The position numbers were made by a program. A stretch of DNA of 63,921 nucleotides, the filler included, from Acidimicrobiia bacterium (GTDB taxonomy: Bacteria; Actinomycetota; Acidimicrobiia; Spongiisociales; SHLN01), in the NCBI GenBank assembly GCA_041619515.1. It is 4 parts of 4 records of this genome, joined end to end, with 100 filler letters (N's around TTAATTAATTAA, not from the genome) between each part and the next. Parts side by side here need not be neighbours in the genome. Positions count along the whole stretch, not along the records: positions 38,717 to 57,465 come from JBFKDW010000060.1; 3 more parts are not named here. One strand, given 5' to 3'. Positions 51,401 through 55,589 of this stretch are shown here, piece after piece (the stretch's first letter is position 1; the number at the start of each line of letters is the position of its first letter).

Positions 51401-54400
51401 TCGATAGCCAGCCGCATCAAGCAGACGGCCGCCCGGGCGGCGGTTGGGCTCGTACAAGTGGCGGTCGATGCCGTCGGTACAAAACCTGCGGCAGGGGAGG
51501 CCGAATCGGCTCAGGAGCCCTTCACCTGGGGCCGCTTCTTCACCAAGCTGCGGGAGCGGGTGAAGGCCGAGAACCTCCCCTTCCTGTCCGCCGGCCTTGC
51601 CTATTACGGGATGCTCGCCATCGTGCCCGGGCTGATTGCGGTGGTGTCGGTGTACGGACTGGTCGGCGACCCGGCCGAGGTGGCCGGCGTCATCGACGAC
51701 CTCGGCGACGCAGTGCCCGCCGAGGTGGCGGCGTTCCTGGAAGGCCAGATCAACTCGATTCTCGAGACCCCCGCCTCCAGCTTGAGCTTCGGCCTGGCCC
51801 TTTCGACGCTGGGGGCGCTGTGGGCGGCCTCCAACGGCACCAAGGCCCTCATCCGCGGGGTGAACCTCGCGTATGGAATCGATGAGACCCGCCCGTTTCT
51901 GAAACTGCGGGCGCTGTCGATCGCCATCACGGTGGGCCTGATCGCCTTCGTCGGAGCCGTTCTCACGGTGGTGACCTTCGGGCACCGTTGGCTGGGGGGC
52001 TCGGGCTTCGTGCAGCCCCTGTTCGAGTACGGCCGCTGGCCGCTGGTTCTCCTCGTCTCGATGGTGATGCTGGCCGGCTTCTACCGGCTCGCCCCCGCCA
52101 AGCGCCAGCCGGACTGGAGCATCGCCAGCCTCGGAGCGGTGGCGGCTTCCGTCGGCTGGTTGGTGGCCTCGTTCGGGCTCGCGTTCTATGTGTCGCGGTT
52201 CGGGTCCTTCAACGAGACCTACGGCACGCTCGGGGCGGTGATCGTCGTCCTGCTGTGGCTGTTCGTGTCGGGGTTCATCGTGCTGCTGGGCGCAGTGCTC
52301 GACAGCACCCTGGCCGACATGCGCAGGGCCGAGTCCCACTAGCCCTGTACCGAGAACCCACCTTCGTGCGTTGCGATGCGGACGCCTGCGCCCTTCTCCA
52401 GCGCTTCGATGATCACCCCAGTCAACCCATAGACCGCAGCCTCGTTGGTGGGGCTGTGGCCCACGACAAGCGCACGGCCGCCCTCCGACAGCATCGAGAA
52501 CACGGTGCGGAGACCGTCGGCCAGCACCCCCGAGTCGGTCTCGACGAGCTCCGGATCGGCGCTCCGCAGCGATGCCAGGTCCCCGGCGCCGGCGGCGCGA
52601 TATGCCGCCCGCCAGCGGTCCTCGACCGACGAGCGGAGCGCCTCGACCACCACGACGCCGCCCGGAACCGTTTCGCCGAGCCCGGCCAGGAGGCAGCCGA
52701 CCGTCTGGGTGGCCCGCTGGGCCCCGGAGGAGACGGCAACCGAGTAACCGCCGGCAAGGCCGCGTCCGATCTCGATCGCCGCGGTGATGCCCTCGGGCGT
52801 GAGCGCGTCACCCTCGTTGGCGGTGTGGCGCAACAGCTCGATGGTCTTCACTCAACCCTCCGGTGACGATCGTACCGGACTGCCTGTGCCCCAGATCGAG
52901 CAGGTTGCGGGCTCGTCCCACCGGGCAGCACGCACTGGAAGCCTCAGGGGAGGTCGCGGGAGAGGGCTACCTGCAGGGCCGGAGTGCCGGACGTGAGGTA
53001 GGCGATGGCCCGCTCGTACTCGGGCGAGTCGTAGTAGTCGCTGTGCCCGTGCGGCTTGGGGTACGGATCGCCGGGCCGCGGGAAGCGGTCGTGCTCGACC
53101 AGCCCGACCGTGTTCGGATCGTCGATCGGGTTGAAGATGTTGGCCTCCGCCACATAGTCGGGCGGGCCCGAGGCCAGCGGTGTGCCGGTCTTCTCGTCTT
53201 CGCCCGCCACCGCGCCTCCGATCGGGTCGGTCAGGCGGTAGAGGTTGATCCACCGAGGAAGCTCGCTGTTCTTCCACCGCTGTGACAGCCGGGATATCGA
53301 CGGCGCGATCTGGTAGGGGAAGTAGCGAAGGTAGAGCCGCCCGATCGGACTGCCGTGTGTCACCAAGCTCACGCAATGGAAGCAATTGCGATTGCGAAGG
53401 CCGTCCAACGCCGCCAGCGCCAACACCGATCCCTGGCTATGGGCGGACAAGATCACGCGGGTATCGCCGCACTCATCAGACTGGCGGCTCAGCACGTCGA
53501 GCCGGGTGCGCAGCTCGGGCACCGCCCGGCCGGCGTAACTGGGAGGCGCCAGCGGGTGATACCAGCGGGGCCACAACGTCAGCACATCCCACAGCTTTGC
53601 CACGGTCTTGCGGGCGGTCTGGCTTCTGAACGTGCGCCGCACCAGCCACACCATCCCGATCGGCACGCCAACCGCCATGATCCAGGTGGACATGCCCGCC
53701 AGCCATCGCGGGCTGACGTCGAGCACCCAGTTGGACAGCCTTCCCCGCTCCACGGCCTGGCCACCGAGATCCACCGCCATCAGAAGGAATCCGAGCGAGA
53801 GGATGATGGCGAACGGAGTCTCGAACTTGGATACGAGCTTCCTGGCGGATCGCCGTCTCTGCACATCCTTGAGCCACTGTCTGCGGGACCTGAGCTCGGC
53901 CTGTTGGCGGACCTCTGCGACCCGGTTCTCAGGAGGCCTTCGGCCATGTTCGTCGGGATACATCTGGTGGAGCTCTGCCAGGTCCTCGGGAGGGTGAAAC
54001 AGCCACACGAGGATCGCTGCCAGGACCAGGACGATCGCAAGGATCAGGACACCGATCCCGTAGGCCTCGTATCCGACCGGGTATGCAATGTTTCCTTGCC
54101 CGCCGAGCATACGAGCGACGCCGGAACCCAGGCCTCCCAGCATCGTGAGCGCAAACAGATATCCCGTGAACAACGCCACCAGTGAGCCGAAGCGGCCAAA
54201 ACCAACCGGCGTCGGGTCGGAGCACTCCTCGAGCGGACACGGATATGTGACCGTCCGGCCGGACTTCCCACCGTAGAGACGGAACAGCGAGGTGATGAAC
54301 AGGGCGGCGACACCGAACATGACGAGAAGCAGCGAGTTCGTCATGGCCGGGACCGGCTCGATCCAGGCGCGATTCGCAGCCTCCAGCACCCGGCTGTTCT

Positions 54401-55589
54401 CTGCCGGCCAGACCAGCACTGCAAGCGCCGCGGCTGCCCACACCAGCATGGAAACATAGAGCAGGCCATGACTGAGGCGCCAATCCCGCTTCTCCGCCGC
54501 CTCGCTCGCCTCGGAGCCGTCCCGCCTCAGGGGCCGGTACACCCCACAGGCAACCGCCACCACCAGCAGCAGCACTGCGGCACCGTAACTCAGGAGCGTC
54601 AGCACCAGTTCTGTGGCGCCGTCGAAAGACACGCTGAGGGCCGCATCTGCTTCGGCCATCCGATAGAACCACACACCGGAGCCGGCCATCATCCAGGCGA
54701 GTGCCGCCAAGCCGGCGGCGAGGTGCAAGGATGCGAAATTGCCGAGCTGCTTGGAGCGCTTCCAGAACGTGTCATCGGCGAAGCTGTCGAGCTCGTCCTC
54801 CCGGATCTCGTGCGCGGGTGTCGCCTGGCTGGGGCCCTCAGGGTTGTCGAAGGGGTATTCCGCCTCGTAGCGGCCACGGGAAACGTGGCTCAGCTGCCAG
54901 AGGACGAATAGGAGAACCAGTGGGATGAGAGCGCCCACCACATAGCGGCGGCCCGGCTCACTGAAGAACGCTCCCTCGAAGAACTCGAGATAGAAGTACG
55001 ACTCACGGCACGCCTGTTGCCCGCCGCATTGATAGGCGGCGTAATCCGCCGTGAGGCTGGCGATCCAGGTGATGGCAACAACCGTCAGATAGAGGCCGAT
55101 CACCCGGATCAGCCCCTCCGCCAGCCGGCGCCAGCGTTCTCGCCCCGCCTTGGCCTTGAGCAGCATCCAGCCGGCGACGTTGATCAGCGCGAACGGTGCC
55201 AGCAGAACCCACAGCGCCCGGGTCCAACCCTGGGATGTGAGCCCTCCCCACGAGTACGCCTCTCGTACCTTCGCCTGCCCGGGAACTGAGTCGACCCGGC
55301 GCCGGAAAAAGCCGGCGGTTTCGTCCCCCCGGACCTGCACCACGTCGTCGGACGCCAGGAGGTCCTCGGGCCGAATCCCCCCAACCCCATGGACTCGCAG
55401 CTCAACCAGCCGAGCGTTGGCCGCCTCCGTGTGCTCGTAGGGTCGCATTGCGCCACCTCCTACGAAAGGGCCTCGGTACCAGTGTGCGCACCATTTCCTC
55501 CCAGGGGATAGAGTCGAAGGCCCTCACACCCGGATGGCGCAGGTTCACGCCTCGATGACGAGGCGGGCTTCGCTTGACCGATCCGCGCC

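Follow-up and report, generated by a model that had tools for sequence, protein, structure and literature searches.

What kind of enzyme is g02242, an 834-residue protein whose chain begins and ends like a hydrolase and passes in between through a membrane domain? Its gene lies in the 63,921-nucleotide stretch of DNA analysed here (the window), corresponding to C60:16732-14231 in contig coordinates. Its composition (GC 0.658, GC3 0.82) is like that of the neighbouring genes. An initial annotation had assigned it to an unnamed actinobacterial family with three copies in the genome, and we arrive at the same assignment. No Pfam or NCBIfam family reached its cut-off with g02242 (Cutinase, E 0.082 at residues 651–701), the best PDB match by sequence had an E-value of 6.6, and the ESM Atlas returned unnamed clusters only. 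The paralogues are a complete copy of 898 residues on contig C64 and a copy of 725 residues on C105 that is open at the contig end; local segments of the three copies are 31–44% identical. The Asp/His end is encoded at C65:1-372, a stretch that probably completes the C105 copy. The family comprises 2,095 clusters at E ≤ 1e-30, and full-text literature searches, which covered subscription papers incompletely, found no paper on it.

The two chain ends form one hydrolase core

In the AlphaFold2 model (pLDDT 89.7, pTM 0.92), residues ~14–72 and ~639–820 are one small α/β-hydrolase domain, with ~540 residues inserted after the second core strand. DSSP assigns to the N-terminal piece a strand (14–20) ending in H20-G21, a hairpin (36–50) and a second strand (60–67). 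The first strand would correspond to β3, with H20-G21 as the oxyanion loop, and the strand at 60–67 to β4. The model has the central parallel sheet and the nucleophile elbow between strand and helix that characterize α/β hydrolases, with Z-scores up to 10.9. In a fold search of 48,161 chains, the best 50 were all α/β hydrolases, aligned from residues ~1–13 to 817–828. The figures reported earlier for cutinase 1xzj were reproduced (Z 10.9, rmsd 3.2 Å, 164 residues aligned, model range 7..827).

When residues 8–74 and 606–826 were folded as separate chains, they assembled with a score of 0.83 (best control, 0.00). Of 157 solved complexes 116 score this high, as do 2 of 215 mismatched pairs. The contacts agreed to 74% or more, and partner pLDDT was 73 or higher; strand 14–19 pairs with 665–670, and residues 18–19 contact 670–677. 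This result may reflect likeness to solved hydrolases. The AlphaFold2 model, the fold matches over residues 7–827 and the two-chain prediction thus concur on the single core, built from both ends, that had been proposed.

Predicted catalytic residues

Ser671, Asp741 and His802 are an intact predicted triad, with the His-Gly motif beside the nucleophile. The three residues, proposed earlier as a set, are jointly retained in 113 of the 114 homologues aligned, which are related rather than independent rows. On our provisional strand numbering, the nucleophile, the acid (after β7), the histidine (after β8) and the oxyanion residue (after β3) follow the order of the superfamily, whose canonical positions are given in PMC11878206. 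Whether Asp741 or Asp777 is the acid had been left open; Asp741, which aligns with the invariant Asp of two sister families (P0251 and P0254, below), is the likely one.

The reported invariance of individual residues stands for H670, G673 and D741, present like S671 in all 114 rows, and falls slightly short for H802 and D777 (113 each) and for H20 and G21 (111, the other three rows being gaps). The two pentapeptides described as invariant both vary: HGVGG occurs in 58 rows and HGVSG in 42, AHSQG in 68, GHSQG in 20 and CHSQG in 17.

Table 1. Features of the g02242 locus, in window coordinates.
Feature	Position	Strand	Basis or remark
g02242, 834 aa, predicted membrane-embedded α/β hydrolase	52944..55448	minus	real ORF, ATG start
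Shine-Dalgarno-like GGAGGT	55455..55460	minus	six bases upstream of the ATG
N-terminal core piece, residues 14–72	55233..55409	minus	DSSP; 20/59 columns ≥90% conserved
Helix H1, residues 75–97, conserved (R77, W80, P85, F86, N90)	55158..55226	minus	hydropathy, alignment
Membrane domain, residues 104–608, ten predicted transmembrane helices (H2–H11)	53625..55139	minus	hydropathy, alignment
C141-C147 pair in predicted outside loop	55008..55028	minus	both in 104/114, neither in 8, one only in 2
Amphipathic helix and proline-rich loop, residues 609–641 (R613, W620, D621, P627, P636, Y638)	53526..53624	minus	13/33 columns ≥90% conserved
C-terminal core piece, residues 642–820	52989..53525	minus	DSSP, fold matches, two-chain prediction
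Nucleophile elbow A-H-S671-Q-G	53430..53444	minus	S671 in 114/114; strand 664–670, then helix 673–684
Asp741, predicted catalytic acid	53226..53228	minus	114/114; after strand 733–736, putative β7
His802, predicted catalytic base	53043..53045	minus	113/114; aligned to H604, which is invariant in the five-helix family

The membrane domain and its orientation

Hydropathy analysis gives g02242 eleven hydrophobic segments at a threshold of 1.3 and ten at 1.6, with a mode of ten among homologues; the earlier count of 8–9 membrane helices is therefore too low, and the protein probably has ten membrane helices and one interfacial helix. The latter would be H1, which basic loops on both flanks mark as interfacial or re-entrant. 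The five inside loops carry on average 17.1 Lys and Arg residues, the five outside loops 6.1, and the inside value is higher in 114 of 114 homologues, again as related rows. By the positive-inside rule, the hydrolase core is probably cytoplasmic, an answer, drawn from hydropathy and charge bias, to the question of membrane side left by the initial annotation. No signal peptide and no hydrophobic segment were found ahead of residue 75. The cysteines C141 and C147 probably form a disulfide.

The conserved positions of the insert cluster at the two places where it joins the core. At the first lies H1, with N90 in 112 of 114 rows; at the second, residues 609–641 would form the rim of the substrate entrance, and residues 609–624 have a hydrophobic moment of 1.52. 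The membrane domain also contains an invariant histidine (H242, 114/114) and the near-invariant T122 (112/114), D135 and W229. Across H5–H11, no column is at least 90% conserved.

The membrane domain, which had not previously been folded and searched alone, gave a confident model (pLDDT 88.5, pTM 0.90) that matched no fold among solved structures. The best hits of the wide search, in which only model residues 37–279 were well covered, were generic bundles, the top one with Z 10.7 across 149 of 554 residues. We accordingly set aside a known transporter or receptor as its identity, as the fold searches returned nothing specific. The GPCR and coiled-coil matches that the full profile gave seem to be an artefact of hydrophobic composition.

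Relationships to other α/β hydrolases

The closest detectable kin of g02242, as judged from profile comparisons, are two other unnamed bacterial families. Its C-terminal half is homologous to P0251, a soluble actinobacterial family with one member labelled 'serine peptidase' (HH probability 97.6%, E 5e-12), and to P0254, a family with five membrane helices (98.4%, E 8e-15). Both share with g02242, in the same order, a His-Gly near the N-terminus, HSxG, GSP, W-x-N...Asp and His. The N-terminal pieces and membrane parts gave profile probabilities of at most 1% against the sister families, with the VHGxG motif alone aligned, not significantly. The His-Gly to Ser spacing is 165 in P0251 (no hydrophobic segment in 89 of 90 members), 401 in P0254 (mode of five segments) and 628 in the g02242 family (mode of ten). 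This progression, from ~165 through ~400 to ~630, suggests that the membrane domain is an expansion of the lid site after β4.

In the accessible text of a superfamily survey, the membrane bundles described are all terminal fusions and the lids all small insertions (PMC11878206). The g02242 family, with more than 2,000 sequence clusters whose members are annotated as 'hypothetical' or 'integral membrane protein', would carry an entire polytopic membrane domain at the lid site. The series from soluble through five-helix to ten-helix proteins would be an example from nature of how a membrane domain can arise by enlargement of a lid site. Of the new architecture announced earlier, the large membrane insert within the core stands; full uniqueness does not, because the separate five-helix lineage also has membrane helices between His-Gly and Ser.

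The label of a cutinase fold, in contrast, is too narrow. Many small hydrolases tie with the g02242 core at Z 10–11: in the unbiased search, the cutinase representative (10.2) scores no higher than VC1974 (10.7), YdeN (10.6), TesA (10.5) or SE_1780 (10.5). Cutinase 1xzj, Bacillus subtilis YdeN and LipA, VC1974 and TesA have the same core fold (Z 10–10.9, rmsd 3–4 Å, 158–194 residues aligned, 11–19% identity) and share the strand-elbow-helix arrangement of the nucleophile. All five are soluble single domains, whereas the g02242 core is interrupted by ~540 residues with ten predicted helices. Nor is the elbow of the cutinase type, as had been suggested: cutinases have G-Y-S-Q-G, whereas here the motif is x-H-S-Q-G, with His and never Tyr before Ser in 114 of 114 rows. 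Cutinases are secreted domains with disulfides in the core. The g02242 core has no conserved Cys, the only cysteines conserved in at least 90% of rows being 141 and 147 in the insert, and PF01083 scored 13.3 bits with the whole protein and 15.8 bits with the domain against a cut-off of 25.9. Given also the missing signal peptide and the probable cytoplasmic location, a cutinase identity was rejected. A true cutinase or polyester hydrolase on the cell surface is thus hardly credible, even though cutinases lead the Foldseek-derived list (Z 10.9) and the S-Q-G part of the elbow is shared.

The order of motifs in DDHD enzymes looks like that in g02242. DDHD2, a lipase and transacylase, has the triad S351, D541 and H681 (PMC12663969) and a lid inserted after β4 (PMC11878206); DDHD1 and DDHD2, which are intracellular phospholipases A1 (PA-PLA1), share with g02242 its probable cytoplasmic side, its predicted Ser-Asp-His triad and the insertion after β4. 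The g02242 insert follows strand 60–67, the putative β4, and insertions at β4 also occur in families other than DDHD. DDHD enzymes are soluble and bind membranes through an amphipathic helix, unlike g02242 with its ten predicted membrane helices. The Nir2 DDHD structure 9JYX ranked 13th in Foldseek over 220 columns, a weak match (E 0.17, rmsd 14.8); it was missing from the best 50 of both structural lists, and the sister-family profiles did not match it. PF02862 (DDHD) had no match in g02242 or its genome and none above the cut-off in 151 genomes. Kinship with DDHD enzymes is thus not established.

PGAP1, a GPI inositol deacylase, combines ten membrane helices with an α/β lipase domain, the two jointly forming a cavity (PMC10761859). 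PGAP1/Bst1 resembles g02242 in these two parts and differs in being eukaryotic and lumenal and in having jelly-roll domains. The PGAP1 structures 8K9Q and 8K9R were not among the listed fold matches of either model; PF07819 (PGAP1) did not match g02242 and stayed below its cut-off in domain-only members (best E 0.001, 8 of 69). Bacterial α/β hydrolases fused to transmembrane bundles include Abhydrolase_9 with Abhydrolase_9_N (PF10081/PF15420) and DUF687, as described in the survey cited above (PMC11878206). There the bundle is fused on at the N- or C-terminus, whereas in g02242 it is an insert within the core, and none of the three families matched g02242 or the domain-only members in Pfam.

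Proposed function

We favour, with modest confidence, the reading that g02242 is a serine hydrolase integral to the inner membrane whose substrate is an ester of a membrane lipid. It would be an acyl hydrolase of the phospholipase A or lipase type and might also act as a transacylase. Ten helices would cross the membrane, so that the core hangs on its cytoplasmic face. H1, the polar residues of H2 and H4 and the helix-loop at 609–641 would form a fixed cap, opening the active site to the inner leaflet, and the variable helices H5–H11 would hold the enzyme in the membrane and might adjust which lipids it accepts. An acyl-enzyme would form at Ser671, to be resolved by water or a lipid hydroxyl. 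The substrate class is suggested by the Foldseek best rows for g02242, fungal lipases and feruloyl esterases (E 0.04), and by sub-threshold Pfam matches of the 69 domain-only members (Abhydrolase_6 36, Lipase_3 29, Cutinase 15, PGAP1 8, Tle3 8). Further support comes from the conservation at both ends of the insert and from PGAP1 as a precedent, in which a ten-helix membrane domain and a lipase domain enclose a common lipid cavity (PMC10761859). Against this reading count that no common neighbourhood points to a pathway, that the gene is patchy, that the family-level matches are all sub-threshold and that thioesterases and esterases tie equally in fold.

That tie, which includes TesA and acyl-protein thioesterases, also fits an active serine hydrolase that acts on something other than bulk lipids. 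It would deacylate a small hydrophobic compound, a protein (as a thioesterase) or an envelope intermediate that is acylated or lipid-linked, and the membrane domain would bind or deliver this substrate. PGAP1, a ten-helix lipase specific for a lipid-linked substrate (PMC10761859), is a precedent, and the invariant or near-invariant polar residues in or at the membrane helices (H242, T122, N90) agree with it, but no envelope-synthesis or transport neighbours recur at the examined loci; we regard this as a real though rather doubtful possibility. A transporter or channel, in which the ten helices would pass a lipid or acylated solute to the core for processing, is very improbable. Ten helices are transporter-sized, and transporters top the Foldseek rows of the domain, but at E ≥ 0.02 and TM-score ≤ 0.16; no transporter fold was matched, and no column of H5–H11 reaches 90% conservation.

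The distribution of the gene bears on yet another reading, a sensor-coupled or conflict effector whose variable membrane domain would detect a stress or an infection and thereby activate a lipase that damages membranes. The gene is patchy, present in 1 of 13 genomes of this genome's own family, where it is therefore not core lipid metabolism; a genome of the same genus lacks it at the syntenic locus; the three copies are deeply diverged; and the C64 and C105 copies have CHAT-SIR2, STAND-WD40 and cyclase-NB-ARC-TPR genes in their vicinity. An IS481 element and a tRNA-Met 3' fragment lie upstream, and the helices vary rapidly. However, PADLOC matched none of 11 proteins at E ≤ 0.01, homologues were absent from the 50,697 phage records searched and present in 3 of the 72,556 records of a plasmid collection, flanking genes are mostly ordinary metabolic ones, and all eight genomes of family f29 have the gene at a fixed, housekeeping-type locus, so that we consider an effector role improbable. 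An integrated island at tRNA-Met was rejected: the window holds no intact tRNA-Met, so the fragment is only a remnant. In a FastTree tree of 81 rows the three copies do not cluster together, a hint of old divergence only, since long branches meet and one row (L073) is a wrongly called frame.

No shared gene neighbourhood emerged across 61 of 80 loci and 119 flanking proteins, among which the commonest family was short-chain dehydrogenase (five times). In Streptomyces-like genomes the gene has a fixed locus, and a MOSC / beta-helix-AAA / DeoR / cysK locus is among those that carry it. About 12 neighbours are lipid-related (acyl-CoA dehydrogenase, YhhN, UbiA, DAGK, GDSL), an observation that has no background rate and was not counted as evidence.

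More speculatively, and on balance unlikely, the family could be a bacterial branch of DDHD/PA-PLA1-type enzymes in which the β4 lid was replaced at least twice independently by a membrane domain, one of five helices and one of ten, the latter with an undescribed fold. Its role would be to raise one specific lipid out of the inner leaflet to the active site, and the enzyme, a phospholipase or transacylase independent of acyl-CoA, would remodel membrane lipids in actinobacteria, Streptomyces-like ones among them.

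A hydrolase core split by a membrane insert

The AlphaFold2 model of g02242 (pLDDT 89.7, pTM 0.92) contains strands at residues 14-20, 36-41, 45-50, 60-67, 664-670, 693-698 and 733-736. In VIA-align over Foldseek's list, cutinases ranked at the top (Z 10.9, rmsd 3.2, 164 residues aligned, range 7..827), with RavL, lipase B, Bacillus lipase A and SE_1780 at most 1 Z unit away. The best 50 of 48,161 chains searched with VIA were all alpha/beta hydrolases aligned through both chain ends. The alpha/beta-hydrolase fold requiring both ends, as proposed in the initial annotation, therefore stands, but its assignment to cutinases in particular does not, because VC1974, YdeN, 5f2h, TesA and SE_1780 (Z 10.5-10.7) outscored the cutinase row (10.2).

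When residues 8-74 and 606-826 were folded as separate chains, the pair scored 0.83 (best control, 0.00), with contact agreement of at least 74% and partner pLDDT of at least 73; of the solved complexes, 116 of 157 reached the mark for this score, as did 2 of 215 mismatched pairs. In the two-chain model, strand 14-19 is paired with 665-670, and residues 18-19 contact 670-677. Since single-domain halves can pass through their likeness to solved hydrolases, the two-chain test confirms the fold and not activity. The split-core architecture is real.

Ser671, Asp741 and His802 occur together in 113 of 114 aligned rows. Asp777, previously considered alongside Asp741 as the acid, is conserved as well (113/114). 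Asp741 is the likelier predicted catalytic acid because its place just past strand 733-736 is the canonical one for the acid, and because it is aligned with the invariant Asp of both sister families described below (soluble and five-helix), neither of which has an Asp aligned with Asp777. Passages of PMC11878206 put the canonical oxyanion loop after beta3, where the model places H20-G21. Strand 60-67 would then be beta4, so that the membrane insert would occupy the beta4 lid site, which the same passages list for DDHD2, FSH1 and Abhydrolase_8.

Topology and fold of the insert

Eleven hydrophobic segments (H1-H11) are present, where 8-9 membrane helices had been proposed. The Lys+Arg content alternates from loop to loop (3.8, 2.0, 4.3, 0.6, 2.9, 1.2, 3.1, 1.1, 3.0, 1.1), summing to 17.1 in the five inside loops versus 6.1 in the five outside ones; inside exceeds outside in 114/114 rows, which are related. 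The chain ends must share one side, so the number of crossing helices must be even. For this reason, and because basic residues flank both its ends, H1 (residues 75-97) is best read as interfacial, so that ten helices would cross the membrane and the core would be cytoplasmic. A Cys pair, co-present in 104 of 114 rows, lies in an outside loop, as a predicted disulfide would require.

Conservation in the insert is concentrated at H1, at residues 609-641 and at a small number of polar positions within H2 and H4; no column of H5-H11 reaches 90% conservation across the 114 rows. For residues 72-625 folded alone (pLDDT 88.5), Foldseek found nothing specific (best E 0.022, TM-score at most 0.16) and VIA only generic bundles, the best of which (Z 10.7 across 149 residues) falls under the Z of roughly 13 asked for helical models. 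The membrane fold is apparently new.

A large unnamed family and its relatives

No Pfam or NCBIfam family matched g02242 at its cut-off, and no solved structure matched by sequence. Full-text searches of mostly non-subscription literature brought up no description of the family, which is large and unnamed. A word-indexed search returned 194 matches among 8,000 scored candidates; the 114-row alignment comprises the query and 113 of the 120 matches listed. Against 1.84 billion 50%-identity clusters, its profile matched 6,124 representatives at E<=0.001, 3,902 at 1e-10 and 2,095 at 1e-30; some of the weakest matches will be fragments or due to hydrophobic bias. Homologues are labelled 'hypothetical' or 'integral membrane protein' and, once, 'DUF2974 domain-containing'. 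All 80 retained genome-collection loci are actinobacterial, going by titles; a plasmid collection of 72,556 records gave three matches.

The C-terminal profile matched 34 of 301 genomes of the phylum at E<=0.001, three of them unpublished (G001, G048, G120), and 22, including G120, at E<=1e-20. Matches occur in one of 13 genomes, many incomplete, of the organism's own taxonomic family and in 8/8 of family f29. Within the genome itself, tblastn recovered the two paralogues reported earlier, on contigs C64 and C105. A profile search showed that C65:1-372 codes for the Asp/His end without overlapping the C105 part, so the two are probably a single third gene split by assembly. In two Acidimicrobiia genomes, homologues carry a C-terminally fused NUDIX domain (L009:5962-9417, L030:2656-6765).

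Among the products of nineteen regions retrieved from weak C-terminal-profile matches are soluble proteins that share this motif order, one protein with five helices, and a divergent paralogue that has ten helices and A-Q-S-M-G. The soluble family (P0251, L096:992-1876) has 1,688 matches among 8,000 candidates, 90 of which were aligned together with P0252; the five-helix family (P0254, L092:1132-3081) has 18 homologues, and in it roughly five membrane helices separate the His-Gly motif from the serine. Their C-terminal halves match the g02242 family (HH 97.6% and 98.4%, respectively), the N-terminal pieces have the VHGxG motif alone in common, and profile comparison found no similarity between the ten-helix and five-helix membrane parts. 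The His-Gly to Ser spacing is 165, 401 and 628 residues in the soluble, five-helix and ten-helix families (rows 90/91, 16/18 and 111/114), with modes of 0, 5 and 10 hydrophobic segments, which supports a variable insert having turned, perhaps repeatedly, into a membrane domain.

The P0251 family is itself large, unnamed and actinobacterial; one member is named 'serine peptidase' without visible support. The divergent ten-helix paralogue (P0255, L100:1211-3649), the second in an f29 genome, has PG in place of HG and an A-Q-S-M-G elbow, with Ser/Asp/His apparently kept. Proteins at L083:1894-4656 and L084:1020-3290, possibly further membrane-inserted lineages, have 5-8 hydrophobic segments ahead of an HSxG elbow; a pattern search found no HG motif in them.

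Predicted function

The motif order of the clade looks like that of DDHD/PA-PLA1 enzymes; kinship with them stays a lead because checks of it were weak or negative. The nearest architectural analogue is PGAP1, according to passages of PMC10761859 a ten-helix lipase whose cavity is formed by both domains. As parts of PMC12663969 have it for DDHD2, a Ser-Asp-His triad of such kind can also perform transacylation.

The chemistry of g02242 is ordinary. We lean towards an inner-leaflet lipid acyl hydrolase or transacylase, in which the membrane domain would take over the lid position and the core would act on inner-leaflet lipid. A specific deacylase or thioesterase is conceivable but rather doubtful. 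We regard a conflict effector as unlikely; PADLOC profiles matched 0 of 11 proteins, and the family is absent from 50,697 phage records. A coupled transporter appears more improbable still, and a cutinase, given the ranking in the VIA search, hardly credible.

Genomic context

Features of the g02242 neighbourhood (window positions)
Feature	Position	Strand	Remarks
g02242 ORF, 834 aa	52944-55448	minus	Shine-Dalgarno-like site present
IS481-family transposase	55840-57384	+	at contig end, upstream of and adjoining g02242
tRNA-Met 3' fragment, 54 bases	55590-55643	+	98% identity to full gene on contig C119
511-aa ORF	49842-51377	+	between era and YihY/BrkB gene
7TM-HD protein	44730-47231	+	PASTA domain within extracellular region

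The gene is convergent with a phoH-ybeY-corC-era run. The tRNA-Met fragment is a possible attachment-site remnant; a second copy, of 48 bases, lies on C39. The 511-aa ORF has no Pfam, NCBIfam or PADLOC match and is unaligned with the syntenic G304 locus. We take the 7TM-HD protein to be GdpP/PgpH-like. In another genome of the genus the neighbouring genes are retained, with no g02242 copy at the matching locus. Among 119 flanking proteins from 61 of the 80 loci, called with a simple script, no family was seen more than five times.

The eight f29 genomes have a beta-helix-AAA gene on one side (8/8) and a divergent DeoR gene on the other (7/8), with MOSC, SRPBCC and cysteine-synthase-like genes nearby. 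We infer that this is the Streptomyces cysK locus of PMC13118837, and that f29 is Streptomyces-like; passages of that paper describe DeoR and beta-helix clusters next to cysK in about 89% of 929 genomes, and its passages and table rows on the locus leave the family gene unnamed.

Near the C64 and C105 copies, at L081 9739-17623 and L082 2329-7667 respectively, lie amidase-PG-binding, CHAT-SIR2 and STAND-WD40 genes, together with cNMP-binding, subtilase and cyclase-NB-ARC-TPR genes.
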